A DNA stretch of 64,000 nt from Candidatus Uhrbacteria bacterium (GCA_016187485.1 JACPJO010000002.1:27912-91911), one strand, 5' to 3'; positions 5,082-53,459 are shown, counted from the stretch's first letter. The notes: a model not told the origin generated them from the letters alone. Translations and numbers: made by a program.

Positions 5082-7673
5082 ACCTCCGCTTTATACACGG
5101 CTTCTGTGTCCCCGGAACGTGGAGATGAGATGGAGGGACGGAGGGAAGCGCGTGGTGAACCCAACATGAACTACATCGTAGAACAATCGTTGCGGAAACA
5201 TCACACGCCATAAACCCCCTCTTAGGGTGCGTCTGATGTTCCCGCGATTCGCGGGAATTTTGTTTCACTACAGAGCATTGCTCCGGGCATCGAATCAGTG
5301 CTCTGGCGTGAAGGCCAGACGGAACCTTCACAATTTACACACCAATACAAACAATGTCGCACGCAGAAATGCGTGTGGCGATGGCATGGAAAAAGCCTCA
5401 ACTACAAGGCATGGGGAGTCAGCGTCGGAGTCGTACTTTTTGTACGACGACGAGCTGACGGGGCCCCATAACGCCGTAGATGAGGAATTTTTACATGCCA
5501 GATCTATACAGATAGTGGGTGAAGAGCATAAGGGCAGATGGTGGATGGCTCGACCATAGACGCCGATGAAGGACGTAGCAGCCTGCGATAAGCTTCGGGG
5601 AGGTGGCAAGCAACCTTTGATCCGGAGATCTCCGAATGGGGAAACCCGGTCTGAAGAAGTCAGATCATCCAACACTGAATACATAGGTGTTGGGAGGTTA
5701 CCTGGTGAAGTGAAACATCTCAGTAGCCAGAGGAAAAGAAAAAGATAGCTCGTTGTGTATACGAAGGTTCTCCATTGGGAGCTTTCGTATACAACAACGA
5801 GAACATTCCCCTAGTAGTGGCGAGCGAACGGGGAACAGTCTAAACTTCGTGGATGAAGCGTTGAACAAAGTGGGTATCATTGATATTCATCCGTTTGGCG
5901 TGAAAGGCAAGGGCCGTTGTCCACGGAGGGTTGCAAGATGCGCGCGCGTCTTTCCCTTGAAAGGCGACATGATCGTTGTGTTATAGGAGAATCTGCTGGA
6001 ACGCAGAACCAAAGAGGGCGAACGTCCCGTATCCAAAATATCAACACGACGTGTGGTGCGCATTCTTAAGTACCACGAGACACGAGAAATCTTGTGGGAA
6101 CCTAGCGCGACTATGTGCTAAGACTAAATACGTCTATGGATCGATAGTGAACAAGTACCGCGAGGGAAAGCTGAAAAGAACCCCGGAAGGGGAATGAAAT
6201 AGTTTCTGAAACCATCTGCTTACAAGGAATCGGAGTCCCTCCGTAGCCGCAAGGTGAAGAGGGATGACGGTGTTCCTATTGAAGAATGAGCCAACGAGTG
6301 TGCTGCATGTCGCCGGTTAAGTCCTCCGGGATGAAGCCAGAGTGAAAGCAAGCATTAACGTGCGTCTCTAGCAATGTTCAAGGATGAGTTTCTCATTCTT
6401 GAACATGGCTAGAAGGTGGCATGCACACGACCCGAAACCGGGTGACCTAACCATGACCAGGGTGAAGTCCCGCGAAAGCGGGATGGAGGCCCGAACTCAC
6501 GTGCTGTGCAAAACACGGAGACGAGTTGTGGTTAGCGGAGAAATTCCAATCGAACTCGGTAATAGCTGGTTCTCTCCGAGATAGCTTTAGGGCTAGCGTC
6601 GGTTACAGTCTGTTGGGGGTAGAGCACTGAATGGGACAACCGCCTTCGGGTAGGTGTCCTAACCAAACTCCGAATACCAGCAGATGATCCCGGCAGTCAG
6701 ACGATGGGGGCGAAGCTCCATACGTCGAAAGGGAAACAGCCCAGATCTCAAACTAAGGTCCCAAAATCATCGTTAAGTGTAAAAGGTGGTGAGAAGACTT
6801 ATACAGTCAGGAGGTTGGCTTAGAAGCAGCCATCCTTTAAAGAAAGCGTAACAGCTCACTGATCAAGTTTTCTTGCGCCAAAAATGAATCGGGGCTAAAC
6901 GGTGTACCGAAGTTGAGGATGTCCCGCCTTTGGCGGGACGTGGTAGGAGAGCATTCGTGTCAGCGCTGAAGCCATACTGCGAGGTGTGGTGGAGCGGCAC
7001 GAAGAGAGAATGTTGGCATAAGTAGCAAAAAGACGGGTGAGAACCCCGTCCGCCGCAAACCCAAGGTTTCCACAGCTACGCAAATCGTCTGTGGGTGAGT
7101 CGGGAGCTAAGGCGAGCCCGAAAGGGGTAGTCGATGCACAGCTGGTTAATATTCCAGCACTTCGTTTACGTTCTGATGGGGGGACGTTCCGTGTACCTTC
7201 CTGCGTCCTATGGCTATGACGTCAGGAACTCTGGAGTGGCTTGTAGGAAAATCCGCAAGCCGCAAGCTCCGGGGTTGTCGCAATCTCGGGTTACACCGAG
7301 GGAGAGGAGGGGAAGCGGAACCAAGAAAAGCCTCTAGGGTTAACGTAAACGAACCCGTACCGGAAACCGACACAGGTGGGTGGGCATGAATGTGCCAAGG
7401 CGTACGAGAGAATGATCGTTAAGGAACTAGGCAAAAAAGCGGCCGTAACTTCGGGATAAGGCCTGGTTGCTCCCGGGAGGGAGCGACCCGCAGCGAAAGA
7501 CGTCAAGCGACTGTTTACCAAAAACACAGGTCCCTGCAAAACCGTAAGGTGAAGTATAGGGGCTGATGCCTGGCCAGTGTCCGAACGTTAAGGAAGGGGG
7601 TCATGCCCGCAAGGGCGGCAGCCTTCGACTGAAGCGCGGATGAACGCCGGCGATAACTATAATCGTCCTAAGG

Positions 7674-7929
7674 TTTTCCGTATTTTGGCTAAATTTAGCG
7701 AAAGTACGGAGAAGGACTGGGACGATTACGGTGAGTGGGTAAACAAATGAAGTGCTGCCTCACTCTACAGTAATGTAGAGTTGGTCCAAACATGGCTATT
7801 TGCTGGGAACCAGTTGCCAACTGGGATCAGCAGGGAAGTCCTCCGTGGCGGGGACCCCTCAGAGACTAAACGCCGTGCCCCTGGTGCAATCAGGGTGAAG
7901 ATATAGTCCTCCGTCCAAAGGAAACGGAA
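7674..7929 (+). other. Intervening sequence in 23S at an E. coli L1917-equivalent site (probable small group I intron, no ORF)
   Basis: Conserved CCTAAGGT is separated from AGCGAAATTCC by about 256 nt of non-rRNA sequence. Confidence 0.45.
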
Positions 7930-7949
7930 AGCGAAATTCCTTGTCGGGT

Positions 7950-8656
7950 GAACCATGTTCCTCTGTGGTCGGAGAGAACTTGCCCGAGTATCGTGGTAAC
8001 ATGATACAAGCAATCCAGCTCATAACGGGGAATCCTCAATGAGGAAATCCCGTGGGAAGCCCCGCTAAAGGTGGGGCCCCGTAACGACTGACCCGAAAGG
8101 GGAGGTTCCGCAGGTGCGGGACAACACGCTGGCTCTTCCTGATAAGACCAACCTATGGAGATTAATCCATGGTATGTATCTGGATTCGTCGATGGTGAAG
8201 GGAGCTTTCTCGTTTCCTTTTCTGTTCGTCAAAAGATGACGATGGGAATTGAAGCGAGGCCAAGTTTCACCATCAGCCAACACAAGAGAAGTATAAATGT
8301 GCTAGAGCACATCAAGACATACTTCGGGTGTGGCACGATCCGTTACAACATCCATGATGATACATACAAATATGAAGTGAGAAGTCTGGGAGATCTTCTT
8401 TGGAAGATTATTCCGCACTTCGAGCAGTATCCTCTCAGAACGTTGAAGCAGAAAGACTTTGAAACGTTTCGAGATATTTGTTACCTCATGCACACGCAAC
8501 ACCATCGATGTTCGTCTGGTATTAGACAGATCATTGATGTCGCCTATCAAATGAACAATTTTGGGGCGAGGCGTTATACGAAAGAAGATCTCCTAAAGGT
8601 GGTGGGAAGATGAAGGTATAGTCTGAACATCATGGCAACATGATGACTAACATTGG
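7950..8656 (+). mobile_element. Intervening sequence in 23S at an L1931-equivalent site (probable group I intron) carrying a LAGLIDADG homing-endonuclease gene
   Basis: Conserved TTGTCGGGT is separated from AGTTCCGACCTGCACG by about 707 nt. It contains ORF 8155..8613. Confidence 0.55.
8155..8613 (+). CDS. LAGLIDADG-family homing endonuclease (single-motif, I-CreI-like)
   Basis: N-terminal [13 protein letters not shown] motif, about 150 aa. Lies wholly inside 23S intervening sequence B. Local GC is lower than in the flanking rRNA. Confidence 0.75.
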   Translation: MEINPWYVSGFVDGEGSFLVSFSVRQKMTMGIEARPSFTISQHKRSINVLEHIKTYFGCGTIRYNIHDDTYKYEVRSLGDLLWKIIPHFEQYPLRTLKQKDFETFRDICYLMHTQHHRCSSGIRQIIDVAYQMNNFGARRYTKEDLLKVVGR

Positions 8657-8688
<32 letters not shown>

Positions 8689-9169
8689 GACGACTGTCTC
8701 AACGATCAACTCGGCGAAATTGCAAGAGGAGTGAAGATGCTCCTTACTCGTAGTTAGACGAAAAGACCCCGTGAAGCTTTACTACAACTTGGTATTGGTT
8801 TCAGATTTCGCATGTTGAGCGTAGGTGGGAGCTTCGGCGCCAATGAGACACCACCCTTGCGTTATTTGAAGTCTAACTTCGGACCGTGAATCCGGTTCGA
8901 AGGACAGTATCTGGTGGGTAGTTTGACTGGGGCGGTAGCCTCCCAAAAAGTAACGGAGGCGTTTACAAAGGTTGGCTTAGCGCGGATGGAAATCGCGCTG
9001 AAAGGGCAAACCCACAAGCCAGCTTTACTGCAAGACTGACACGTCGCGCAGTCGCGAAAGCGGAAGTTAGTGATCCGACCGTACGACATAGGACGGCGGA
9101 AGCTCAACGGATAAAAGCTACTCCGGGGATAACAGGCTGATCAGGCCCAAGCGTCCACAGCGACGGCCT

Positions 9170-9210
<41 letters not shown>

Positions 9211-9241
9211 AAGAAGCTCCCAAGGGTTTGGCTGTTCGCCA

Positions 9242-9285
<44 letters not shown>

Positions 9286-10021
9286 GGACAAAACCGCGCT
9301 GTCTATAAATTCGACTATATGCTGGAAACCCTGAATGAGTCTCAACAGGAGTAGAGGCTCAAAGAATCTCACACTACGTGCTATGCTTATTAAATATGGC
9401 ACGTGAAAATGTGTTGAGTGCAGGCAATCAGCAGGGAAGATTACATCGTCTTCAACCGTGGTATATCAGTGGTTTTGTGGATGGGGAAGGAAGCTTTCAT
9501 GTGGCGCTCTATAAAGATGCACACATGAAGACGGGATGGAAAATCATCCCAGAATTCCACGTCTCCCAACGTATAAGCAGTCGCCAAGTTCTTGATAGGC
9601 TTGTGGACTTCTTTCGTTGTGGGTATGTAAAACCAAACCATAGAACAAGTTCTTCCGATTTGACGTACGTATATGTTGTACGGGATCGCGGAGATCTTCT
9701 AAAGAAAATCATCCCTTTCTTTCAGCGGCATAACCTCCAGACGGAGAAAGTAAAAGACTTTCAACTGTTTGCGAGAGTTGTACAGCTGATGGAAAAGGGG
9801 GAACACCGGAACACCAACGGAGTAAAAAAGATTTTCGAGATCGCATACCAGATGAATGGTGGCGGTCGGTATCGACGGAAAAAAATACAAGCGATGTAAA
9901 ACCCTCAGAGACTATATGTCGAATTCCGCCATTTGCGGAAAAGATATAGTCCGAACTGCATGGCGACATGCAGAGAACACAAGAAATTGTGTTCCTCCAC
10001 AATTGTGGAAGTAACATATTG
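9286..10021 (+). mobile_element. Intervening sequence in 23S at an L2593-equivalent site (probable group I intron) carrying a LAGLIDADG homing-endonuclease gene
   Basis: Conserved GTCGTGAGACAGT is separated from TCGGTCTCCTATC...CTAGTACGAGAGGACCGG by about 736 nt. It contains ORF 9378..9899. Confidence 0.55.
9378..9899 (+). CDS. LAGLIDADG-family homing endonuclease
   Basis: [16 protein letters not shown] motif. The probable start is the Met at 9396. About 170 aa, inside 23S intervening sequence C. Confidence 0.75.
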
Positions 10022-10151
10022 TCGGTCTCCTATCTACTATGAGCGTTGAAGGTTGAGGGAACCCATTCCTAGTACGAGAGGACCGGAATGGACGAACCTC
10101 TTGTGTACCGGTTGTTCTGCCAAGGGCATTGCCGGGTAGCAACGTTCGGTT

Positions 10152-10184
<33 letters not shown>

Positions 10185-10339
10185 TGATCCCAAGATAAGC
10201 CTTCGTATGAGACCCCTCCGAGACGAGGAGGTTGATAGGCCGCAGGTAGAAGCGTGGTAACACGTGAAGCCGAGCGGTACTAATCGGTCCAGCTCTTCAC
10301 CCACTACCTGTAAAGATCACTTTGTATTGAGCGCATTGT

Positions 10340-10447
10340 TCTGGTGACATTTCCGGCAGGGCCACACCCGTTCCCATCTCGAACACGGCCGTTAAGCCTG
10401 TCCGGGCCGATGGTAGTCACATGGCGAGAGTAGGTCGTCGCCAGAAC
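10340..10447 (+). rRNA. rrf: 5S ribosomal RNA
   Basis: CCACACCCGTTCCCATCTCGAACACGG...GCCGATGGTAGT...GAGAGTAGG matches the bacterial 5S consensus. Lies about 40 nt after the 23S 3' end. Confidence 0.85.
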
Positions 10448-10492
10448 AATGGGCTTGATACAAACACCTCGATGAAAAACCGTCGGGGTGTT

Positions 10493-11218
10493 TTATTTAA
10501 GTATGGTGATGCGCGGGTCCTTACGATCGAGGCCGGGACTGAAGGCAAAAACCTCTCGTACACGCAAACGAGGAACCCCCTCTGGTTCCTCGTAGGTAAG
10601 AGAAACGGCACGATGGCGAACTTTGATAATCCATGTGTGCTCGCCTACCTGCCACCCGCGCATAGGGAATGTCTGAAGTTCACGTTGCTCAAAGACAAAG
10701 GGAGATGGCACGGGGGCAAGCAGAGAGGAGCGTACCCATTCAATGGTATGGTGCTCGATCTCGGAATAAGGATCGTTCCACTGATGTGTGTGCGTAAATG
10801 TGCGGAGCGTTGATGGATCATGTGCCATGGACGCGAAGATTTTTTGAATATGTGCAGGCAGGAGATTCGGTGCCGCGTGCCCCGGTCCCATACTGATCGT
10901 GATGTAGCGTACCACCTCTTCGGGCATCATAAATCCGTGCGACTGTCCGGCACGGATGATGACACTTGCTCCAGGTTCCAGAGTGACGCAAGACTTCTGA
11001 CTAATGACCGTGAGCGTCCCCTTCACCACAAGATAAAAGCGGTCAGCTTGATGGATGTGGAGGGGGATGTACCCCGGCCTCGCGTGCGCATGGAGGAGCA
11101 GCTCGTACGTGTCGGTCTCTCTCCATCGCACAACTCCATGCCCCTGCTCGCCAATCTTTGGCCAGAGTTCTTGCGGCATCATTCCAAGTGGGAGAGTTTG
11201 TTCATCCATACTATCCAT
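10493..11218 (-). CDS. Cupin-domain protein (possibly bicupin)
   Basis: HAHARPGYIPLHIHQADRFYLVVKGTLTV...GASVIIRAGQSHGF is a typical cupin motif pair (G(X)5HXH...G...PxG..H). A second cupin-like half follows in the C-terminal region. Confidence 0.5.
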   Translation of the reverse strand: MDSMDEQTLPLGMMPQELWPKIGEQGHGVVRWRETDTYELLLHAHARPGYIPLHIHQADRFYLVVKGTLTVISQKSCVTLEPGASVIIRAGQSHGFMMPEEVVRYITISMGPGHAAPNLLPAHIQKIFASMAHDPSTLRTFTHTHQWNDPYSEIEHHTIEWVRSSLLAPVPSPFVFEQRELQTFPMRGWQVGEHTWIIKVRHRAVSLTYEEPEGVPRLRVREVFAFSPGLDRKDPRITILK

Positions 11219-11283
11219 CGTAGGGCGTGGGGAGAGTTTGTCAAGGATGGCATTCTTGTCAGATCACTTTTGCTGGGCTACTA

Positions 11284-12065
11284 TGGAGCGGTTTATGGCA
11301 TTTGAAGATACAAAAATTGTTATCTTGGCAGCTGGGAAAGGAAAAAGAATGGGGCTCGAAATACCCAAAGTCCTGGTACCCATTCAAGGCAGACCTATGC
11401 TTGCGTGGCTCTTAGAGGCTGTCGAGAGCGCGGAGGTAGACGGCCCCCCTGTTGTCGTCTATGGACCGGGATTAGAAGAAATTTGTACGTTTGTTGGAGC
11501 ACGAGGCCACTGCACTCTTCAAGCCAAACAACTTGGGACAGCGCACGCTGTTCTCGCAGCAAAGGACGCGCTTGCAGGCGCCAAACGGCTCGTTGTCATG
11601 TACGGGGATGTCCCGTTCATCAGTGCGCGCGCCATTCGCAAAATTGTGGAGTACCACATAAAAAAACCTTGCCCTATCATGGCCGCGGTTGGGGTGGTTG
11701 AGAGTTATACGGGGTGGCAGAGAATTTTCCAGCAACTCGGGCGGATTATGCGTGATGAGGACGGGCTGATTCATGCGATCCGTGAGGCGAAGGACGCAAC
11801 GGAAGAAGAGCTTCGTATACGTGAGATCAATGCGGGCTTCTATGTGTTTGACGCCGAATGGCTATGGAATCATATCGAGAACGTGCAAAATAAAAACGCT
11901 CAGGAAGAGTATTATTTGACAGATGTGATTGCTATGGCGGTTTCGGAGGGACTGCCCGTGCGGACGTACCAGATTCCTATTGAAGAATGCATTGGGATCA
12001 ATAAACTCGAAGAGCGAGACGTGGCAGAAGTTGTTGCCCAACAGCTGGAGAGACGCCTCCCGTGA
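11284..12065 (+). CDS. Sugar-1-phosphate nucleotidyltransferase (GlmU N-terminal-domain-like / MobA-like NTP transferase)
   Basis: KIVILAAGKGKRMG glycine-rich NTP-binding loop and YGDVPFI. The ORF-track start at 11055 overlaps the divergent cupin gene. The Met at 11284 (MERFMAFEDTK) is the more likely start. There is no left-handed-helix acetyltransferase domain. Confidence 0.6.
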
Positions 12066-12084
12066 GCCATAGGCAAAAAATAAA

Positions 12085-12116
12085 AATCTCCGCGAGCATT
12101 TCGTGGAGATTTTTTC
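12085..12116. terminator. Bidirectional Rho-independent terminator
   Basis: AATCTCCGCGA-gcatt-TCGTGGAGATT hairpin (one G-U pair), flanked by AAAAATAAAAA upstream and TTTTTT downstream. It lies between the convergent genes ending at 12065 and 12121. Confidence 0.6.
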
Positions 12117-12120
12117 TTGA

Positions 12121-12201
12121 CTAGGCGCGGCGCTTTGCAGCCTTGCGCTTCTTCGCTGCTGGTTTGCGCTTTGCAACCTTACGTGCTTTCTTTTTTGCCA
12201 T
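12121..12201 (-). CDS. Very small lysine/arginine-rich peptide (26 aa, MAKKKARKVAKRKPAAKKRKAAKRRA)
   Basis: ATG preceded by a strong Shine-Dalgarno GGAGGTGA at about 9-nt spacing, TAG stop, then the terminator. A candidate TACAAT -10 element lies about 65 nt upstream. It is absent from the ORF track only because it is under 60 aa. Confidence 0.4.
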   Translation of the reverse strand: MAKKKARKVAKRKPAAKKRKAAKRRA

Positions 12202-12322
12202 AATGTTTTTGTCACCTCCTTTCTTTTTAGATTTCTCGCAAGATAAATTCTTGCTCGAGTGTATACATTGTAGCGTGTTTGGGAAAAAAAATTATCCAAC
12301 GTGTGGATAACTTAATTTTTTT

Positions 12323-12398
12323 TGGTGGACCACAGCGGATTCGAACCGCTGACCCCCACATTGCAAATGTGGTGCTCTACCAACTGAGCTAGTGGCCC
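12323..12398 (-). tRNA. tRNA-Ala (anticodon UGC), G3:U70 present, CCA encoded
   Basis: Reverse complement GGGCCAC TA GCTC AGTTGGTA GAGC A CCACA TTTGCAA TGTGG ... GTGGTCC A CCA. The G3:U70 alanine identity pair is visible. Confidence 0.85.
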
Positions 12399-12443
12399 CG
12401 AGGAAAGCGGCGGCATCGTATCAATGACGACGTGCGCTGTCAA

Positions 12444-13433
12444 TCACTGCACCAAGTGTGGAATTTTTTTTCCGTGTACGAACGCAAGGATGTTTTTTGC
12501 ACTTTCACGGCTCATGGCTTGGCGTGCTTCCCGCGAGGCGCTGGCTGTGTGAGGAGTAAGCACCACATTCTTCATGCGCCGGAGATCGAGCCGGTCGTGG
12601 GGGTTGCAATCAATAAACGGCTCGCACTCATACACATCAAGCCCTGCCCCCGCGATCTCCTTTTTTGCCAGCGCTTTTGTAAGTGCCAGCTCGTCTACCA
12701 CGGGCCCGCGCGCCGTGTTGATGAGAAACGCCGCCCCCTTCATCATTTTAAGTTCAGGTGTGGAGATAAGATGGCGTGTAGAAGGGAGAAGCGGAACGTG
12801 AAGAGTGACAAAATCAGATTCCTTAAGTAGGCGCGGGAGGGGGCGATACAAAGCCCCGTGCTCTTTTTCAAAACGGCGATCGCGTGTGGGGTTGTGGTAG
12901 AGAATCTTGAGACCGAATCCATCACGTAGCCTCCGTGCCACCATGCCGCCAATACGTCCGGCGCCGATGATCCCTACGGTCTTTCCTATAAGGTCTGTGC
13001 CAAGCAAGAGGTTCGGTCCCCATCCGTGATACTTTCCAGCACGCGTGAACATATCGGATTCAACAATGCGGCGCGCCAGGGCAAACATAAGCGCGATGGT
13101 GTGCTCCGCAACGGATTCAGCGATTTCCTCCGCGGGGGCGTTTGCCACGGACACGCCATGCTTCTTTGCCGATGCAAGGTCAATGTTATCAAACCCGATT
13201 GCGTAGTTTGCGACGAACTTCACCTGTGATCCGGTAACGAAGAACTCATCATCCACGCGATCGGTAAGCATCGTCCATACCATATCGGCTTTTTTGATGG
13301 AGCGAAGGAGCTCAATCCTGGAGATGACACGATCGTGCGGATAGACGGAAAGCGAAATGCGCGGGTCCTTCTTCAACAGACGGATACCTTCGTCGGGGAC
13401 GGGACGTGTGAGAAAAACACGGAGAGGTTTCAT
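12444..13433 (-). CDS. D-isomer-specific 2-hydroxyacid dehydrogenase (glyoxylate/hydroxypyruvate reductase or PGDH-like)
   Basis: GKTVGIIGAGRIGGMVARRL Rossmann motif, a catalytic-domain segment including the conserved Arg/Glu/His positions, and LTPHTASAS near the C-terminus. Confidence 0.8.
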   Translation of the reverse strand: MKPLRVFLTRPVPDEGIRLLKKDPRISLSVYPHDRVISRIELLRSIKKADMVWTMLTDRVDDEFFVTGSQVKFVANYAIGFDNIDLASAKKHGVSVANAPAEEIAESVAEHTIALMFALARRIVESDMFTRAGKYHGWGPNLLLGTDLIGKTVGIIGAGRIGGMVARRLRDGFGLKILYHNPTRDRRFEKEHGALYRPLPRLLKESDFVTLHVPLLPSTRHLISTPELKMMKGAAFLINTARGPVVDELALTKALAKKEIAGAGLDVYECEPFIDCNPHDRLDLRRMKNVVLTPHTASASREARQAMSRESAKNILAFVHGKKIPHLVQ

Positions 13434-31963: not shown

Positions 31964-32716
31964 TTATCGGTCAACGGGGGGCAGGACACGCGTGGTCTGC
32001 CAGAGCACGTCAAAAAGGTTTTTCTGCAGCTCAAAGAGCCGATGGGACTCAACAATCATCCCGAAGGGCTCCTCCGTGGTTCCCATGTAGGCGACCTTGT
32101 TGTCGTAGAGGTACATAGTGAGGTGGAACGTCATTTTCCCTGGCGCAATATGCACCTCGCGGTTCTCCTTAATGCTTGAAGGGTACTTGGCGCCGACTTC
32201 CGTTGCCTCAGAACGGATGACATGGAGGCGTTTCCCAGAAGTAATACGTCGAGTGGTGTAGTCTGCGAACCAATCTTGGCCAGCGAGAAGATCGATATCA
32301 GCGACGGAGAGAATAGCGCAGAGTTGCCGGCTCGTGTTGTTGAGCGTGTCCTCAAAGACGGTCTTTACTCCAGCGGCCCCTTCGTAGAGCCGTATGCGTG
32401 GTTGGTCGGAGGTCGTACGGAATAGGGAGAGAAGTTCCGGAAGAGCGCGCGCGGCTTTCTCTTGTTTCTCTCGAAGCATGGCTTCTAAACGTGTGGGCTT
32501 TTCTGCGCGATAGGTTCGGCGGCGCCCGATTGTGCTGTAACTTGCTAGACCCATGACAACCAGTTGTTGGAGAACTTCATGGGCGGTTGTCCGGGGGAGG
32601 CCTACTTCGCGACCGATGCGCTCTGCTGTCCCTGCGCCAACACGAAGCAAAGCGAGATAAATTTCCCCTTTTGTCTTTGGCAAACCAATTTCTCCGAGGG
32701 TTTCTTTGAGTGACAT
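31964..32716 (-). CDS. TrmB-family-like transcriptional regulator (wHTH plus sensor domain)
   Basis: N-terminal LGEIGLPKTKGEIYLALLRVGAGTAERIGREVGLPRTTAHEVLQQLVVMGL matches the TrmB-type winged helix. About 250 aa. Confidence 0.5.
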   Translation of the reverse strand: MSLKETLGEIGLPKTKGEIYLALLRVGAGTAERIGREVGLPRTTAHEVLQQLVVMGLASYSTIGRRRTYRAEKPTRLEAMLREKQEKAARALPELLSLFRTTSDQPRIRLYEGAAGVKTVFEDTLNNTSRQLCAILSVADIDLLAGQDWFADYTTRRITSGKRLHVIRSEATEVGAKYPSSIKENREVHIAPGKMTFHLTMYLYDNKVAYMGTTEEPFGMIVESHRLFELQKNLFDVLWQTTRVLPPVDR

Positions 32717-32875
32717 GAGTGGAACAAACGAGACTTACACACTTTCGTCGGAACTTTCCGACGACCATTATTGCATGGAAGTACTTATAAATGCAATTTT
32801 CCTACATATAGGAACTTACATATGTCGGAAATATACTTCCACTTTTGCCTCACCTAAGGTACGATCGGCACTTGT

Positions 32876-34609
32876 ATGAAGTCCAAAACACCAAACTTTG
32901 ATGAGAGGATTGAGGAACTGTTAAAAAAATTGGTGCCAGGCACCAGAGTGTGTAAGAAAACAGGAGAGACTTGGGAGCTTACCCAGGAAGAAATTGAATG
33001 GTGCCGGCATTTTCGTGTACCGCCGTCGGATGTAAGCCCACTCGCACGTCTGCGTATGCTCACGGCCTTTTTTGTGGGCTACCAGTGGTGGAACAATAAA
33101 AGCGCGAAAGATGGGAGGACGCTTGTGAGCTCCACGCATCCGGCGAGTGGTGTGAAGATTCTCCCAGACGAGGAGTGGCTTCAGCAGGACTTTTCTTCTC
33201 TTCGACGACCTATTCATTCGGACACCTCTGTTTTTCGTGTGCTCCAAGAGCTGTCCCGAGAGATCCCCTTTATGGCGTTTCGCAATGCGGTACCGCCAGA
33301 AAACTCCATCTCTACAATCTCCATGGGGGACCAAAACAGTTATTTCATGAACGCTTGTCGATCGAAGAATTCCTTTTTTGGGATGAATGCGCTCGACACG
33401 GAAGATTCTGCAGAAGTTTATCAGTCAGGAAAGATTGTCGGCTCCTACAATGTGGTACACGCCGAGCGTCTTTACCAATGTCGGTTTGTGCAAGAGTCGC
33501 GTGATTGTATGAGCAGCGCATTTCTTTTTGATTGTCGAGACTGCGAGCATTGTTTTATGGCGACGAACAAACGACGGGCAAAATATGTTTGGAAGAATGA
33601 GCAGCTTTCGCGGCAGGAGTATGAAAAACGTATAGCCGAAGTGGACCTGTCTTCCCGCGTGCGGCTTGAGGCGTACAAAACAGAGTTTCTGGAGTTGATA
33701 CGGACACAAGGAATCTGGCCCGAGAACTTCAACGAGAAAGCGGAACAAAGCTCTGGAGAGTATTTACAGGAAGTCACCAACTGCCATTTTTGCTATAACA
33801 ACAATTATGGGTGCCGTGACCAGCTTTGGTGCGCGTACATGTTTCATGAAACATTCCAAAATGCATTCGACGTCGGGCTTTTCTACGGAACGAACAACTG
33901 CTGGGGTTGTTCAACGGGGTCGCGAAGCGCGAACTGTCTCTTCAGTTATCTTGTCGTAAATTGCCAACGCGTGGAATACTCCATGCATTGTTACGATTGC
34001 GAGAACTGTTTTGGATGCGTGGGGCTTAACCGCAAGAAGTTTCACATCTTCAATACGCCATGTACGGAAGAGGAGTATTATCGGTTGCTCGATGAGATAA
34101 AGTGCGGGATGCTTGAGCGACGCGAATACGGGGAATTTCTTCCCGCCACTCTTTCGCCTACGCGCTTTTTGGATTCCGGCGCTGCGCTCTTTCTTTTGGC
34201 AGATGAGGTAGCGGGGCGGCAACTTGGTGCATTAGAGTATGCGCCTGAATCTGCAGGGGCAAGTGGAGACCCCTCGATTGTCCTTTTACCGGTGGGTGAT
34301 ATTCCCGACAGCATTTCCGATCCCTCGGTGGAGGCGCTTTCCGGCAAGCTCTTTTTTGACGAGTCTCTCGATCGACGTTTTACTTTCCTTAAACCAGAGG
34401 TGGAGTTTTATCGCGCGATGAAGATCGGTCCGCCTCGTGATCACTTTATTGCTCGTGTGCGCGATCTTAGCTTTCGCGCAAATTCAGGTGTATTTGAGGA
34501 CACCATCTGCGCCAAATGCTCACGGAATATTCTCGTCACGAAGAATAAAACATTTCCTTCACGCACTATATATTGCCGCGCATGTTACCAAGACACTCTT
34601 TCCGCGTAA
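32876..34609 (+). CDS. Cysteine-rich cytoplasmic protein with repeated CxxC/CxC modules, unknown function
   Basis: 577 aa with no signal peptide. Recurring units include ...CRFVQESRDCMSSAFLFDCRDCEHCF..., NCHFCYNNNYGCRDQLWCAYMF, NCWGCSTGSRSANCLFSYLVVNCQRVEYSMHCYDCENCFGCVGL and C-terminal CAKCSRN...YCRACYQ. Confidence 0.5.
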   Translation: MKSKTPNFDERIEELLKKLVPGTRVCKKTGETWELTQEEIEWCRHFRVPPSDVSPLARLRMLTAFFVGYQWWNNKSAKDGRTLVSSTHPASGVKILPDEEWLQQDFSSLRRPIHSDTSVFRVLQELSREIPFMAFRNAVPPENSISTISMGDQNSYFMNACRSKNSFFGMNALDTEDSAEVYQSGKIVGSYNVVHAERLYQCRFVQESRDCMSSAFLFDCRDCEHCFMATNKRRAKYVWKNEQLSRQEYEKRIAEVDLSSRVRLEAYKTEFLELIRTQGIWPENFNEKAEQSSGEYLQEVTNCHFCYNNNYGCRDQLWCAYMFHETFQNAFDVGLFYGTNNCWGCSTGSRSANCLFSYLVVNCQRVEYSMHCYDCENCFGCVGLNRKKFHIFNTPCTEEEYYRLLDEIKCGMLERREYGEFLPATLSPTRFLDSGAALFLLADEVAGRQLGALEYAPESAGASGDPSIVLLPVGDIPDSISDPSVEALSGKLFFDESLDRRFTFLKPEVEFYRAMKIGPPRDHFIARVRDLSFRANSGVFEDTICAKCSRNILVTKNKTFPSRTIYCRACYQDTLSA

Positions 34610-45544: not shown

Positions 45545-46318
45545 GTGTTCTTCCATGCGTCGTGTCGCGCGATCCTCCATATGATACCATGGTACCACAT
45601 GGAGGATTCCAAGCGCTGGCTCCCGATTGTCGTGACGGGCATCTTGCTTTTGCTTGCGGGATTGTTTGTGCTTCGCGTCGTCGTTTTTTACAGCCAGATT
45701 CGCAAAGGCGACGACCAACAGCGTTCTTTCGGCGCGTCCGCCGAGCTCACACGCTCGCCCGCGCTGGCGGCAGCGATCCGTTCCACTCCCGCAGATGAAG
45801 TGTATAGCGTGGAGGACGACGATGACCCCATGCTTGGGGGCAAGGACGCACGGCTCACTATTGTGGAGTTTGCCGACTTTGGCTGCCCGTACTCGCGCAA
45901 GGCCTCGTCATCCATGCGCGCCCTTGCACTTACCTACGGCGAGAACATCCGCTATATCTATCGCGATTTTCCGATCACCGAGATTCATCCCGACGCGTTT
46001 TTAGCGGCGCAGGCAGGACAATGTGCCAACGAGCAGGATAAGTTCTGGGTCTATCACGACGCACTCTACCAACACCAAGAGGACCTTTCTCGCGCGGCGC
46101 TCCGTTCGTATGCACAGGCGGTAGGGATGGATGTCGGAGCATTTGATCGTTGTCTTGCCAGTGGGCGCTACCGCCAGGAAGTGGAAAAAGATTACGCGGA
46201 AGGTGTGGCGGCGGGCGTCGTGGGAACACCCACATTCTTTTTCAATGGGCGCCGTGTGGAAGGAGCCATCCCCCTCGAGATTCTTCGTTCGCTCATAGAC
46301 ACTTTTCTTAAGGTATGA
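45545..46318 (+). CDS. DsbA-family thiol:disulfide oxidoreductase (membrane-anchored)
   Basis: N-terminal TM, then thioredoxin fold with CPYS active site (EFADFGCPYSRKA) and ...GTPTFFFNGRRVEG. The stop overlaps the start of the next gene (ATGA). Confidence 0.6.
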   Translation: MFFHASCRAILHMIPWYHMEDSKRWLPIVVTGILLLLAGLFVLRVVVFYSQIRKGDDQQRSFGASAELTRSPALAAAIRSTPADEVYSVEDDDDPMLGGKDARLTIVEFADFGCPYSRKASSSMRALALTYGENIRYIYRDFPITEIHPDAFLAAQAGQCANEQDKFWVYHDALYQHQEDLSRAALRSYAQAVGMDVGAFDRCLASGRYRQEVEKDYAEGVAAGVVGTPTFFFNGRRVEGAIPLEILRSLIDTFLKV

Positions 46319-47646
46319 GAGCGCTCATCTCTCTGCTTTTCTTTCTCTCCTTCGCCCTGCCCGTGCAGGCGGCGGATCCGGCAGGGACTTGCCGGTGTTG
46401 GTGCGGGTCGACCGCGGGCGCTATTGAGTATGGCGTGTATCGTCCGGATGAAACGGAGTGTTTGAACCTCTGCAAGAGCATCAACCAGAGGTACTTGGGT
46501 TGTGTTGCGGAGGAAGACATTTCTCCTTTGGAGAACCTACGCTGTTGGTCTGCGCAAGAGTGCACACAAACCAATGCGGCGACGGGGAATCCGTCGGGAA
46601 TTTTTGATGATACACAGCCAACCGAATGCATGCCCGGATTCCGTTACTGTTTTCCCTATCCCGAACCGATTCCTCTTAGCGTGCATTTTGGGGACAAGAC
46701 GTTTGTTTATGGGATTGGCGGGTACACCGCGACCGTGTATCGCTGGCTTATAGGCGCTGCAGCTGTCTTTGCTGTCATCATGCTCATGGCAGGCGGCATA
46801 CAATATATGCTGGCGGGCGGGAGCGGGAACGTAAAAGAAGCGAAGGATCGCATGAAAAACGCCATCATCGGTTTTGTCATTCTTCTTTCAAGCTATCTCT
46901 TATTGCTCACGGTAAATCCGCAAACGTTATCCTTGCGCTTACCGTCTTTGCCGAAAATCCGCCCGCTCATCGTCGCAGACGGGAACCAGTCATGCGAGGC
47001 GTACCAGAATGCCAAATACCACGTGGAGGTAAACGGGAGCCAATTTTTCAGCGGGCTGTCTTGTGGCAGAAAAGGATCGGTAACGAAAGGACCCGACGGC
47101 GCGCAGCTTTCAGAGGAGACATCGTGTTTTTTCCGCGCGTGTACGCAAGCATCCATGACGGCAGCGGGGGAGACCTGTGCGATCGATACGACCGAAGAGA
47201 CCGGCTCGTGCATGACATGCGCGGATATTACGGCTGGCCAGACGGCAACACCGGGAGTGCTTGCCTCTCCCTCGTTGTGCAGCGGTTTATCGCAACTCGC
47301 CGGAGGATCGGGAAGCCGAGAACTTTGCCTCTATGTCCCCGCCGCTCCCGAGGAGAAGTTTCCGGACGGGTATTGCGGAAGTTTGACGCTCGACTGCAAC
47401 GCCATTGAAGACTGCGAAGATTACGGAGACCTCGTCCCGTACAATTCTGTGGTAGAACAGGTGGTGTCTACGCATACAGCCGTTACTATTGCCGCTGACC
47501 TTGAGGGCCTTTCAGAAAAAACGGGGCGCGAGGGAGAACCGCTTGCCGGTGTGTGCACAGACGATCCGTGCAACCTTGCGGCGGAAGGAAAACGCTGTGG
47601 CGTGCGCGTGACAGGGAATGATGTTTCGTGCGTCACAAATCCCTGA
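46315..47646 (+). CDS. Secreted Cys-rich protein with central two-TM hairpin (TrbC/VirB2-pilin-like core)
   Basis: Signal peptide MRALISLLFFLSFALPVQA. The Cys-rich N-domain has about 12 Cys. Two hydrophobic helices are separated by a short basic loop (WLIGAAAVFAVIMLMAGGIQYMLAGGSGNVKEAKDRMKNAIIGFVILLSSYLLLLTV). The Cys-rich C-domain has about 16 Cys. Confidence 0.45.
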   Translation: MRALISLLFFLSFALPVQAADPAGTCRCWCGSTAGAIEYGVYRPDETECLNLCKSINQRYLGCVAEEDISPLENLRCWSAQECTQTNAATGNPSGIFDDTQPTECMPGFRYCFPYPEPIPLSVHFGDKTFVYGIGGYTATVYRWLIGAAAVFAVIMLMAGGIQYMLAGGSGNVKEAKDRMKNAIIGFVILLSSYLLLLTVNPQTLSLRLPSLPKIRPLIVADGNQSCEAYQNAKYHVEVNGSQFFSGLSCGRKGSVTKGPDGAQLSEETSCFFRACTQASMTAAGETCAIDTTEETGSCMTCADITAGQTATPGVLASPSLCSGLSQLAGGSGSRELCLYVPAAPEEKFPDGYCGSLTLDCNAIEDCEDYGDLVPYNSVVEQVVSTHTAVTIAADLEGLSEKTGREGEPLAGVCTDDPCNLAAEGKRCGVRVTGNDVSCVTNP

Positions 47647-50648: not shown

Positions 50649-52382
50649 TTGCTATTTTCCCCTCTTATGAAAAAGACATTTCTCGCCGTTATTCTTGTGG
50701 CCATCTTGCTGCCCGCGGGCATTGGTCGTGCAGATAACCCCACTTGGCAGGTTTTAACTGCCACGGATGTATGGGATCGTGGAACACACCGCGTGGAGCG
50801 TTTGGATCTCCCGCGCATTGTGGAAGGTCCCCTCAACTTGGGTGACAATGTGGTTGTACAGACTGTTGCTTCCAGTTGTGTGAGTGCTGCCTGCGATGAA
50901 CGCGATGCCTATATTCTTCGCAACGGCTCGGCCATCCGCGTGCCTAACGTGCCCAAGAGCGCGCTTTCGCTTGCAGAGTTTAATGCGAACGGCGGGCGTG
51001 TTGTGTGGGCGGTGCCGGTGCCTTCGGACACGGGTCGTTGGGATGTGATTGAACTGGATCTTGCCAGCGGACAAAAAGTAAAAATCGCCGGGAACTTTTT
51101 CCTCGGCAATGTGGAAACCATGAAAGTTCGTGTGGCGGACGGAGAGATTTTCCTGAATCCTACGTTCATTTCTGGCGGAAATACCTTCAAGAACGCTGGG
51201 GTGTTCCGCTATGATCGTGCGCGCGGCGATGTGGTGAATGTTACACAGCGCTTCAACGCTCAGCACGAGGAACTTCTCGACGTGGATCTTGCCAACAACC
51301 GTATTCTCACGAAGATGTCGTTTGCCTCTGGGGAGAAACAACTTTGGCTTACCAAAATCACCTCGGAATATTTGAATGGCGAAGCCAACCGTATCATCGG
51401 CACATGGACGCCGGCGCATGAGGACCTTGTAGGCGGACACTTCCGTCCAGATGGTTCGGTCGAATACTTCCGCATGTACACGCGCAGCCTTTCTTCGACG
51501 AACGGGGTCGTGGATACATTCCAGACAACGGCGCTTGGCGAGCAGATGTCGTGGTACCGTCCGGCAAGCGATGCCGTCACTATTTCTGGTGACAACATGG
51601 TGTGGATCAACAATGATAATGAGCTTACCGTTTCCAATGAACAGTTCGGCACGATCCGTGTGGGCACTATTGGTCCGCGCGCGCCGCGTGTCGTTGGGAC
51701 AGATGTGTACTTTGCCACGCCCGAGGGCATGGGAATGGTCTATCGTCTCAAAGATGGAGTGAGCACGCTTCTTGATTACATGCCGACGGATCGCTTCAAA
51801 GTGGCGATGGTGGGTGTGGACGAGGCGGGAACAGTTCGTTTTGGCTCTACAAAGAACCCCGACGAGTCCATTTCGATGGGCGTGGGAACGGATGCGGCCC
51901 TTTCTGATGAGCGCCATGTCTATTGGCGCGGCGTGGACGGAGCGATCTACGAAGCAACGCTCTCGACAGATCCAGGCGTAAGCACAACGGGAAAGATGGA
52001 GGCCGTGAAAGTGGAGAACAATCCGACGGTGTTTCTGACCGATGGCGTGAATCGCTGGACCTTCACGAATGAGGATGTCTATCGTACGTGGTTTGACTCT
52101 ATGGACACGGTAAAGACGATCTCTGCGACACGACTTGCATACTTGCGTGATCGCGGCACGGCACAATTTGCGCCGGGCACAAAAGTAAAAGCAAAAGATG
52201 ACGCGCGTCTGTATGTGGTCGGCCGGGACAATAAGGCCCACTGGATCGTGAACGAGACGGTTGCCGATGCCGTGTTTGGATCCTCGTGGAACAAGGACGT
52301 CAAAGAAATTGATACCGCGGCGATGGTTTCCTACCAACAGGGCCGCACCATTGATGACGCTCTCGATATTGACCTGATCTAA
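50649..52382 (+). CDS. Secreted hypothetical protein (577 aa)
   Basis: Signal peptide MKKTFLAVILVAILLPAGIGRA. Beta-rich with no recognised motif. A candidate promoter TTGACA-17-TATTTT sits at about 50631..50659. Confidence 0.45.
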   Translation: MLFSPLMKKTFLAVILVAILLPAGIGRADNPTWQVLTATDVWDRGTHRVERLDLPRIVEGPLNLGDNVVVQTVASSCVSAACDERDAYILRNGSAIRVPNVPKSALSLAEFNANGGRVVWAVPVPSDTGRWDVIELDLASGQKVKIAGNFFLGNVETMKVRVADGEIFLNPTFISGGNTFKNAGVFRYDRARGDVVNVTQRFNAQHEELLDVDLANNRILTKMSFASGEKQLWLTKITSEYLNGEANRIIGTWTPAHEDLVGGHFRPDGSVEYFRMYTRSLSSTNGVVDTFQTTALGEQMSWYRPASDAVTISGDNMVWINNDNELTVSNEQFGTIRVGTIGPRAPRVVGTDVYFATPEGMGMVYRLKDGVSTLLDYMPTDRFKVAMVGVDEAGTVRFGSTKNPDESISMGVGTDAALSDERHVYWRGVDGAIYEATLSTDPGVSTTGKMEAVKVENNPTVFLTDGVNRWTFTNEDVYRTWFDSMDTVKTISATRLAYLRDRGTAQFAPGTKVKAKDDARLYVVGRDNKAHWIVNETVADAVFGSSWNKDVKEIDTAAMVSYQQGRTIDDALDIDLI

Positions 52383-53384: not shown

Positions 53385-53459
53385 AGGCCCGTAGCTCAGC
53401 GGTAGAGCATCGAGCTTATACCTCGACGGTCGCTGGTTCGATCCCAGCCGGGCCTACCA
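53385..53459 (+). tRNA. tRNA-Ile with genomically encoded UAU anticodon (AUA-decoding), CCA encoded
   Basis: AGGCCCG TA GCTC AGCGGTA GAGC A TCGAG CTTATAC CTCGA CGGTC GCTGG TTCGATC CCAGC CGGGCCT A CCA. Acceptor stem perfect, U8/A9 present, anticodon positions 34-36 read TAT. Confidence 0.75.

Follow-up and report, generated by a model that had tools for sequence, protein, structure and literature searches.

The 64,000-nt stretch of a Candidatus Uhrbacteria genome studied here (GCA_016187485.1, JACPJO010000002.1:27912-91911; hereafter, the window) contains, at positions 32876 to 34609 of the plus strand, an open reading frame (ORF) for a cysteine-rich protein. An initial inspection of the DNA, the sequence-only reading, took it to be a cytoplasmic multi-zinc or iron-sulfur scaffold of an undescribed family, encoded divergently from a TrmB-like regulator. 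The ORF as then delimited is correct: it starts with ATG, its homologues align from residue 2, and its 577-aa product is identical to Ca. Uhrbacteria HYW18_00770 (P0001). Twenty-six residues are Cys, a share of 4.5%, while the remaining 32 window ORFs of at least 200 aa average 1.07%, and all Cys motifs quoted in the sequence-only reading are present. Nine CxxC motifs occur where 1.1 are expected, and 30 of the 36 Cys pairs at most 18 residues apart are spaced by multiples of three (shuffle mean, 6.6); neither count was reached in any of 20,000 shuffles. The claim of a cytoplasmic protein that lacks a signal peptide holds, as there is no hydrophobic N-terminus or transmembrane (TM) segment (maximal 19-residue Kyte-Doolittle mean, 0.99). 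Neither the ferredoxin pattern CxxCxxCxxxCP nor the radical-SAM pattern CxxxCxxC occurs in the sequence, as had been stated, and the protein has no Pfam match to Fer4 or Radical_SAM. A tblastn search with the protein detected no paralogue in the 64 kb. The features of the locus are as follows, with amino acid positions referring to the 577-aa protein.

31964..32716, minus strand: divergent gene for a 250-aa TrmB-family helix-turn-helix regulator (Pfam TrmB, 1.5e-9).
32717..32875, no strand: divergent intergenic region, 159 bp; GC content 40%, that of the window being about 54%.
32876..34609, plus strand: complete ORF, 577 aa, stop codon within the coordinates; AlphaFold2 (AF2) models with a mean predicted local distance difference test (pLDDT) of 88.0 and 90.3.
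32876..33295, plus strand: N-terminal domain, aa 1-140; low column entropy, pLDDT 93-98.
Inside the N-terminal domain, aa ~20-63: degenerate treble-clef-like motif, of which C26 alone is kept, with T29, S54 and A57 where sister clades have Cys.
33302..33571, plus strand: beta-solenoid module A, aa ~143-232; hexapeptide repeats, hydrophobic at position 3, S/A/C at position 6.
33506..33553, plus strand: Cys cluster A at the end of module A, C211-x8-C220-x2-C223-x2-C226, then F-G/M; 88-100% Cys in all three superfamily clades.
33611..33709, plus strand: helical inter-module linker in the AF2 models, aa 246-278.
33758..34054, plus strand: beta-solenoid module B, aa ~295-393; a homologous copy of module A in which strands recur every six residues over aa 340-391.
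33776..33955, plus strand: hypervariable body of module B, aa 301-360; entropy 2.3-2.6 bits, pLDDT 65-74, most divergent among paralogues.
33989..34045, plus strand: Cys cluster B at the end of module B, C372-x2-C375-x2-C378-F-G-C381...H390.
34067..34480, plus strand: C-terminal helical domain, aa 398-535, of which aa ~492-535 are a second copy of an N-terminal motif.
34493..34603, plus strand: C-terminal zinc ribbon or treble-clef finger, aa 540-576, C545-x2-C548-x18-C567-x2-C570; Cys (nearly) invariant, weak S27e and LIM matches.

The Cys spacing had been thought to recur in units of 25-30 aa. This was not borne out: the true period is a hexapeptide, within two homologous beta-solenoid modules of ~85-100 aa. 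Counting hexads from residue 143 puts a hydrophobic residue at position 3 (F157, V181, I187, V193, L199, V205, C211, L217, C223) and a small S, A or C at position 6 (A160, S166, A172, S178, S184, S190, A196, C202, S208, S214, C220, C226), and the same register is found in aa 295-390. The Cys spacings of 3, 6 and 9 thus arise because the Cys sit on the two ladders of a hexapeptide beta-solenoid. The modules stem from an internal duplication (aa 162-245 versus aa 312-397; hhalign 97.8%, E = 1e-12), both copies of which terminate in [FY]-x-C-x2-C-E-x-C-F-G...R-K-K-[FY]-x-[IW]-F-N. A second repetition concerns the N-terminal motif E-I-x-W-Y-K-K-F-x-V-P-P...R, which returns at aa ~492-535 (hhalign 94%, E = 1.2e-7). 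AF2 modelled the protein with a pLDDT of 88.0 and a predicted TM-score (pTM) of 0.90 from an alignment of 60 sequences, and with 90.3 and 0.92 from 126 sequences. The models have four-residue strands at six-residue intervals over aa 185-218, to which the deeper alignment adds aa 340-391. Confidence was lowest over aa 290-340 (pLDDT 65-74). Strongly conserved segments (aa 1-60, 91-105, 211-240 and 376-420) alternate with peaks of divergence (aa 301-360, 106-135, 181-195, 256-270, 436-480 and 526-555); the seven Cys within aa 301-360 (303, 306, 313, 319, 342, 345, 354) are not conserved, with frequencies of 20-52%.

Fold comparison of the predicted structure recognises a generic solenoid only. 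The best Foldseek match of the AF2 model in the PDB has E = 0.097 and TM-scores do not exceed 0.25, all matches being left-handed beta-helix (LbH) proteins: GlmU, PglD, DapD, LpxA/D and gamma-carbonic anhydrase. Nothing below E = 0.1 was found in BFVD. Like LbH proteins (the GlmU C-terminal domain, PglD, LpxA and gamma-carbonic anhydrase; PF00132), the window protein has a six-residue period, short strands and inward-facing ladders of hydrophobic and small residues. It differs in that neither the query nor 10 distant relatives have a PF00132 (Hexapep) profile match at E ≤ 1, and in that the canonical register, [LIV]-[GAED]-x2-[STAV]-x, places the aliphatic residue at i and the small one at i+4, whereas here the hydrophobic residue is at i and the small one at i+3. 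Moreover, there are two short solenoids here, each closed by a Cys cluster, with zinc-finger and helical domains flanking them.

One could still read the protein as a hexapeptide-repeat acyl- or acetyltransferase that acts on a sugar or glycan intermediate (like PglD, WbbJ or the GlmU C-terminal domain) and was recruited to the glycan locus in which the gene lies. We consider this very unlikely: the period of six and the identity of the best Foldseek matches, all of them LbH acyltransferases or gamma-carbonic anhydrases, argue for it, but those matches are not significant, the Hexapep profile is absent and the register is not the canonical one. The genomic setting, which bears on this enzyme too, is taken up below.

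A likeness to the beta-helical antifreeze proteins (TmAFP of Tenebrio molitor, 1EZG; CfAFP of the spruce budworm, 1M8N) is limited in a different manner. These are small, secreted, disulfide-bonded proteins with TxT ice-binding faces, whereas the window protein has 577 aa, is cytoplasmic and lacks a signal peptide, its conserved Cys lying at the solenoid ends and its ladder Cys being replaceable by Ser or Val.

That the family is undescribed, as the sequence-only reading had it, holds: no family was found at E ≤ 1 in Pfam/NCBIfam, there is no sequence relative in the PDB and no paper was found. PADLOC likewise gave no family at E ≤ 1 for the window protein, and a sequence-profile search of the PDB returned nothing but zinc-ribbon and LIM matches to the C-terminus at E > 0.3. 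Searches of the literature on PF13451, DUF8128, Cys-rich tandem paralogues of the Candidate Phyla Radiation (CPR), and zinc ribbons or beta-helices of Patescibacteria found no description of the family, and no paper in the library searched names PF13451 or DUF8128. The sole matches in the Pfam/NCBIfam/PADLOC/PHROGs scans, AAC(6') at E = 0.06 and phrog_780 at E = 0.29, were dismissed as chance-level. The UniRef name "CaiB/BaiF family protein" on relative P0018 has no supporting profile match and was, therefore, treated as an annotation artefact.

Three models of terminal fingers come closest. TIGR04272 (CxxC-x17-CxxC) and PF23477 (zf_Tbcl_2) share with the C-terminus two CxxC pairs at a similar gap (x18 here); the window protein, however, lies below every threshold, with no match at E ≤ 1, and relative P0190 scores 17.9 bits against a gathering cut-off of 27. 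PF13451 (zf_Tbcl) is carried at the aligned N-terminus by full-length sister-clade homologues that are 21-26% identical and named "zinc-ribbon domain containing protein"; in the query, C26 alone is kept, positions 29, 54 and 57 being non-Cys throughout its clade. All three models cover terminal fingers of ~35-50 aa only and have no assigned function, and the core of ~480 aa lies outside any model. A further likeness is to the DnaJ central zinc finger (PF00684): both caps contain a CxxC-F-G knuckle (C223-E-H-C226-F; C375-E-N-C378-F-G), and family genes occur embedded in grpE-dnaK-dnaJ operons. Yet there is no PF00684 profile match, the motif is CxxCxG rather than CxxCxGxG, and it occurs once per module at a solenoid end, as opposed to four repeats in a V-shaped finger. 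The building blocks, beta-solenoid and treble-clef or zinc-ribbon fingers, are thus of known kinds; their combination is in no curated model and in no paper found.

The conservation of the Cys residues, on which the scaffold proposal depended, was assessed among 60 members of the query's clade and superfamily-wide among 576 members. The proposal stood in part. About 15 of the 26 Cys are conserved in ligand-like sets, and about 11 are ladder or packing residues that swap with Ser, Val or Ala. In the clade, C26 is 98% conserved, C211/C220/C223/C226 and C372/C375/C378/C381 are 97-100% conserved, and C545, C548 and C567 are invariant (100%). At position 390, 80% have Cys and 20%, the query included, have His; position 570 is Cys in 77%, Asp in 18% and His in 3%, and C410 is 80% conserved. 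By comparison, Cys 161, 202, 303, 306, 313, 319, 342, 345, 354 and 363 are conserved in 20-75% and exchange with Ser, Val, Ala or Gly. Universal Cys positions across the superfamily are 26, 211, 220, 223, 226, 381, 390 (C/H in 95%), 545, 548, 567 and 570. Position 495 (D in the query, Cys elsewhere) is C or D in 93%, and position 523 (H in the query, Cys or His elsewhere) is C or H in 90%. Other clades have a complete N-terminal CxxC...CxxC (C26, C29, C54, C57), in which 29, 54 and 57 co-occur with phi 0.7-0.85; the sets {29, 54, 57} and {545, 548, 567, 570} are each gained or lost as a group. In these other clades, the ladder of solenoid A has Cys at most positions, and proteins across the superfamily contain 19-49 Cys.

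Since a subset of the Cys is strongly conserved in ligand-like sets, a multi-metal scaffold is plausible. We infer from the alignments that the conserved sets would be structural Zn(II) sites and the remaining Cys a replaceable core ladder, because ligand positions tolerate His and Asp, zinc-ribbon families are homologues of the terminal fingers and both caps hold the CxxC-F-G knuckle. A cytoplasmic, Cys-capped beta-solenoid, the core ladder of which is fully Cys in some clades, would be an unusual metal-binding design.

The same residues could also make an iron-sulfur (Fe-S) protein. C211 with C220/C223/C226, and C372/C375/C378/C381, would then each ligate a [4Fe-4S] or [2Fe-2S] cluster, for electron transfer or for redox or oxygen sensing in anaerobes. 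A CxxCxxC motif plus one distant Cys is the commonest ligand arrangement of [4Fe-4S] clusters, and it is the arrangement found here; superfamily-wide, each Cys of cluster A is kept in 88-100% of members, sister clades pack the solenoid ladder with up to 49 Cys per protein, and the hosts are anaerobic fermenters. We nevertheless hold an Fe-S protein to be improbable. No Fe-S Pfam family matches at E ≤ 1 and neither the ferredoxin CP motif nor the radical-SAM motif is present; the His and Asp tolerated at 390, 570, 495 and 523 are more typical of Zn sites, the terminal fingers belong with treble-clef and zinc-ribbon families, many Cys exchange freely with Ser, Val or Ala, and the narrow solenoid core would presumably fit a single ion more readily than a cubane.

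The window protein belongs to a large family. A word-indexed search gave 296 matches, the top 120 of which are 573-594 aa long except for a few truncated ones and 40-61% identical to the query; their source names, where given, are Uhrbacteria/Patescibacteria or an unclassified "bacterium". By exhaustive profile search, the family comprises 3,408 clusters (at 50% identity) at E ≤ 1e-3, of which 1,307 reach E ≤ 1e-30. Species-representative genomes contain at least 563 loci, all of which are assigned to a lineage of CPR/Patescibacteria wherever the record title is informative; among the loci listed are Uhr-, Falkow-, Nomura-, Lipton-, Staskawicz-, Gribaldo-, Peregrini- and Peribacteria, Paceibacterota and Minisyncoccia. 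No relatives were found on the viral contigs of IMG/VR. Some contigs with typical CPR/Uhrbacteria genes, arrays of the family among them (L013, L020, L021, L026-L028, L030, L040 and L059), were deposited as "uncultured Gammaproteobacteria bacterium", "Saccharibacteria" or "Bdellovibrionales"; these labels look like unreliable automated mislabels, since the contigs carry Uhrbacteria-type genes, and were not used for taxonomy. The metagenome-assembled genome to which the window belongs has at least two further copies of the family elsewhere (P0041 and its neighbour). CPR/Patescibacteria account for a large share of bacterial diversity, with genomes of ~1 Mb and mostly uncharted biology. In them, the family can fill more than 10 genes per genome, ~2% of the coding capacity, yet it is annotated only as "hypothetical" or "zinc-ribbon domain containing".

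Genomic context was examined in 80 non-redundant family loci, each extended by 10 kb in both directions. Tandem, same-strand arrays of 2-9 copies occupy 57 loci, and single copies the other 23, the window included. Eight copies were counted in L004 and nine in L011, L015, L026, L031 and L075. Paralogues within an array are on average 37-43% identical (54% at most) and thus, judged by their sequences, old and diverged. A few array members are split into two adjacent ORFs (L015 2623-4436; L019 6127-8021; L026 578-2317; L049 9692-11378), which may be frameshifts, pseudogenes or assembly errors. Rare fusions carry an N-terminal GNAT domain (725-734 aa, nine clusters; P0261, L009 8001-10196) or an inositol-monophosphatase/CysQ/HisN-like domain (P0288, 832 aa), and NUDIX genes encoding 174-177 aa occur in or beside arrays (L004 11875-12399; L007 3874-4407). 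Y1 (IS200/IS605-type) transposase-like genes for ~181 aa lie beside family members in L169 (8535-9083), L170 (11033-11578) and L004 (5857-6405), these members including two of the window protein's closest relatives.

When the two nearest genes on each side of the family loci were clustered, the top cluster comprised 44 P-loop ATPases (FtsK-HerA superfamily) from 28 loci. They match TrwB_AAD_bind with 36-53 bits (gathering cut-off 20.5), and also T4SS-DNA_transf, TraG-D_C and DUF87/HerA. Their nearest NCBIfam models are TraD, VirD4-like and CedD, with scores far below the cut-offs, and in PADLOC they match mad8 (E 1e-11 to 1e-18) and, weakly, HerA models. No TM segments were detected (maximal Kyte-Doolittle mean below 1.3). 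There are two forms, a long one of 600-900 aa (ATPase-long) and a short one of ~470-505 aa (ATPase-short). After its ATPase domain, the long form carries a TIGR04272/PF23477 finger (47.6 bits against a TIGR04272 cut-off of 36; 45-50 bits against a PF23477 cut-off of 27), to which the C-terminus of the family is homologous (hhalign 92.4%, E = 5e-7). By hidden Markov model, the ATPase is present in 31 of the 80 family loci, that is, beside 25 of the 57 arrays and six of the 23 singletons, where chance adjacency would amount to ~1% per locus for a genome of ~1,000 genes (a rough estimate). The commonest Pfam families among the 122 immediate non-ATPase neighbours are GrpE (6), TrmB (5), NYN (5), PaaX_M (3) and Bro-N (3).

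The gene order varies among lineages. In Uhrbacteria, it is SecDF, a membrane-anchored DUF8128-type protein, ATPase-long, ATPase-short and the array; elsewhere it is ATPase-long, one or more family members and ATPase-short, a cassette seen in several lineages (e.g., in L083, ATPase-long 7660-9954, family ~9953-11740 and ATPase-short 11808-13322). The Uhrbacteria protein that always precedes the two ATPases has 520-640 aa and a hydrophobic segment at the N-terminus, and lacks a Walker A motif (L004 372-2117; L018 4495-6414; L014 4894-6450). The L004 copy is annotated as DUF8128, and SecD (with a PPIC rotamase insert in L014, 1599-3617) and SecF are encoded just upstream.

In a reciprocal test, metagenome contigs were scanned with ATPase-short. 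The family was present in 62 of the 80 loci returned, and in 40 of the 41 that are at least 12 kb long. Typically, dnaK is followed by ATPase-long, 0-4 family genes, ATPase-short and dnaJ, with DnaJ directly after ATPase-short in 47 of the 80 loci and DnaK directly before ATPase-long in 20. This interrupted operon characterises one large CPR lineage (L083 5746-14477; L089-L168, e.g., L101, L105 and L119), in the fuller form grpE, family, PaaX_M/Cas2-like, dnaK, ATPase-long, family (0-4), ATPase-short, dnaJ. In this lineage, ATPase-short is 74-94% identical across many metagenomes, against 25-45% for the Cys-rich family.

A published survey counted 5,713 VirD4-type homologues of type IV coupling proteins (T4CP) in 2,918 genomes of Patescibacteria, about two per genome, 148 of them near virB4, and left their function open (PMC12102498). 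With the results above, such orphan ATPases gain a specific, near-constant genomic partner and a conserved dnaK/dnaJ operon context. They differ from the coupling proteins VirD4, TrwB and TraD in being soluble, in forming a long/short pair, in not standing beside virB4 and in scoring below the NCBIfam cut-offs for every named T4CP; nor are there adjacent relaxase genes or genes of a type IV secretion system (T4SS) channel, and in one large lineage, the ATPases lie within a dnaK-dnaJ operon. Because ATPase-short is extremely conserved and placed in the dnaK operon, the pair looks like part of a housekeeping machine rather than of a mobile or defence module.

Our best explanation of these observations, to which we give a probability of roughly 0.45, is that the window protein is a zinc-capped, metal-stabilised cytoplasmic scaffold that may act as an adaptor or a client of the ATPase pair and that occurs in repertoires of paralogues. 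The conserved Cys sets would bind structural Zn(II) that caps each solenoid, and the other Cys would be residues of the core ladder. The constant part, that is, the N-terminal domain, the solenoid caps and the C-terminal finger, would interact with the ATPase pair or be handled by it, and, through the hypervariable body of module B (aa 301-360), each paralogue would bind a protein or nucleic acid with a surface of its own. The arrays could then supply a single motor with a repertoire of different adaptors or clients, because the variable module B would give paralogue-specific recognition.

Several observations speak against such a scaffold. Constant length, few indels and the invariant polar residues D98, D219, N231, R233, Q243, E367, N393, D406, R500 and E508 would fit an enzyme too, and a hint of small-molecule chemistry comes from the fusions to GNAT and inositol monophosphatase and from the NUDIX neighbours. 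Adjacency of genes is no proof of physical interaction. About 60% of the family loci, many of them on truncated contigs, have no ATPase within 10 kb, and the 64-kb window encodes no T4CP-like ATPase. The 80 loci of the reciprocal test are not independent samples across CPR, because they belong to one lineage with ATPases that are 74-94% identical.

The tight linkage to T4CP-type ATPases would also be expected of exported cargo, recognised by the VirD4-like ATPases and sent through a T4SS of Patescibacteria, or by some other route, into or onto a host, in which case the arrays would be an effector repertoire for epibiotic life. The membrane-anchored DUF8128-type protein and SecDF just upstream in Uhrbacteria are consistent with export, the diverged tandem paralogues resemble the effector or VirB2 arrays reported for Patescibacteria (PMC12102498), and a VirB2-like protein with a T4SS pilin domain is encoded in the window. 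Export is, however, unlikely in our estimation. The ATPases have no TM segments, most T4CP homologues of Patescibacteria are not near virB4, and the one of Ca. Southlakia epibionticum is non-essential for epibiotic growth (PMC12102498). The near-identity of ATPase-short and its place in the dnaK-dnaJ operon give it a housekeeping rather than a host-specific look. As to the candidate cargo, it ends in a folded zinc ribbon and not in a charged or disordered tail, its metal-stapled solenoids would resist the unfolding required for T4SS export, and its length and architecture are rigidly conserved, unlike those of typical effectors.

A role in defence against phages or mobile elements, with the variable paralogues as sensors and the HerA/FtsK-like ATPases as motor or effector, appears to us most unlikely of all. 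The ATPases do match mad8 of PADLOC and, weakly, HerA; NYN nucleases (5), Bro-N (3), PaaX_M/Cas2-like (3) and Y1 transposase-like genes are found among the neighbours, and diversified tandem paralogues are common in conflict systems. The family itself, on the other hand, has no PADLOC or PHROG match above chance, other components of MADS were not seen, and no relatives were found on viral contigs. ATPase-short is extremely conserved and the cassette lies in the dnaK operon; the paralogues are old (37-43% identity) and not rapidly turning over, and the family is near-ubiquitous across CPR classes, not patchy. Each of the four alternatives (Fe-S protein, LbH acyltransferase, exported cargo and defence) has some support, and we rate all of them below the zinc-capped scaffold.

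A bolder version of the scaffold explanation, which we regard as somewhat unlikely, is that the family and the long and short soluble VirD4/TrwB-like ATPases together form a previously unrecognised cellular machine specific to CPR. Its motor would act on or through a repertoire of zinc-capped solenoid adaptors for proteins or nucleic acids, which might be delivered to a host or taken up from it. In one large lineage, the machine would be co-transcribed with grpE-dnaK-dnaJ. If this were true, it would explain the thousands of "orphan" T4CP homologues of Patescibacteria that lie away from any T4SS.

In the window, the gene stands alone beside the regulator. The divergent TrmB-like gene is confirmed (Pfam TrmB, 1.5e-9), as is the AT-rich spacer dense in palindromes, which measures 159 bp and contains a perfect 9+9 palindrome, TCGTCGGAA-CT-TTCCGACGA, at 32745-32764, an extra half-site, GTCGGAAA, at 32824-32831, and a further inverted repeat, 32798-32809 / 32820-32831. 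A sigma-70 promoter scan of the spacer returned no sites and is uninformative for CPR. Three of the closest relatives, P0002 (61% identical, L171), P0003 (56%, L013) and P0007 (53%, L169), are each paired with a divergently transcribed TrmB-like gene (hmmsearch E between 1e-107 and 1e-87), while P0005, also 53% identical, is not. At the TrmB-proximal end of the spacer, the palindrome is present in all four loci: TCGTCGGAACTTTCCGACGA in the window, TCGTCGGTACTTCCCGACGA in L013, CCGTCGAAACTTTCCGACGA in L171 and TCGTCGACAAATTCTGACGA in L169. A second GTCGGAA half-site lies closer to the family gene in the window and in L013. Paralogues of the TrmB-like gene are found beside family members in L013, L043, L075 (twice), L169 and L171, both L075 copies being inside the nine-copy array.

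The TrmB-like protein is probably the local regulator of the window gene, and the window copy is a stand-alone member of the family, the transcription of which would be controlled by the divergent regulator via the conserved 20-bp palindrome. The TrmB-linked singletons are not a deeply separate lineage, because P0009, 50% identical to the query, sits in the ATPase-linked array of L014 as the first member after the ATPases.

Co-occurrence with both TrmB-like and LCP genes had been proposed as a check. The pairing with TrmB and the palindrome are kept in L013, L169 and L171, but LCP is not a recurrent partner across the 80 loci. The glycan setting of the window gene itself is real, with GT4, DUF4012, LCP and Bac_transf genes flanking it. 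Co-occurrence with glycan and LCP genes as a general feature of the family was rejected, as such genes are not enriched among the 122 immediate neighbours. For the LbH acyltransferase, the window gene among GT4, Bac_transf and LCP, P0034 between GT2 genes and Wzy, and P0002 beside two GT4 genes are suggestive, and the GNAT fusions, NUDIX neighbours and CysQ/IMPase-type fusion could point to coenzyme A or nucleotide chemistry. The lack of enrichment counts against such an enzyme, and a single sugar-modifying enzyme would hardly be expected to form arrays of 8-9 paralogues next to ATPases.

Three other features of the window deserve mention. The ORF at 46315-47646 (plus strand; 443 aa, with a signal-peptide-like N-terminus) is the only one with a higher Cys share than the protein described here (26 Cys, 5.9%), to which it is unrelated in sequence; it includes the T4SS_pilin/VirB2-like domain PF18895 at aa 137-193, with a score of 40.6 bits (gathering cut-off 26.6), and the long C-terminal region after this domain is rich in Cys. 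A second ORF of 577 aa, at 50649-52382 (plus strand), has no Pfam match and no tblastn similarity to the Cys-rich protein and is overlapped by an antisense ORF at 50754-52337. Finally, a gene for tRNA-Ile with the anticodon UAU (tat) is located at 53385-53459 (plus strand); such a tRNA is unusual, bacteria normally decoding AUA with a lysidine-modified CAU tRNA.

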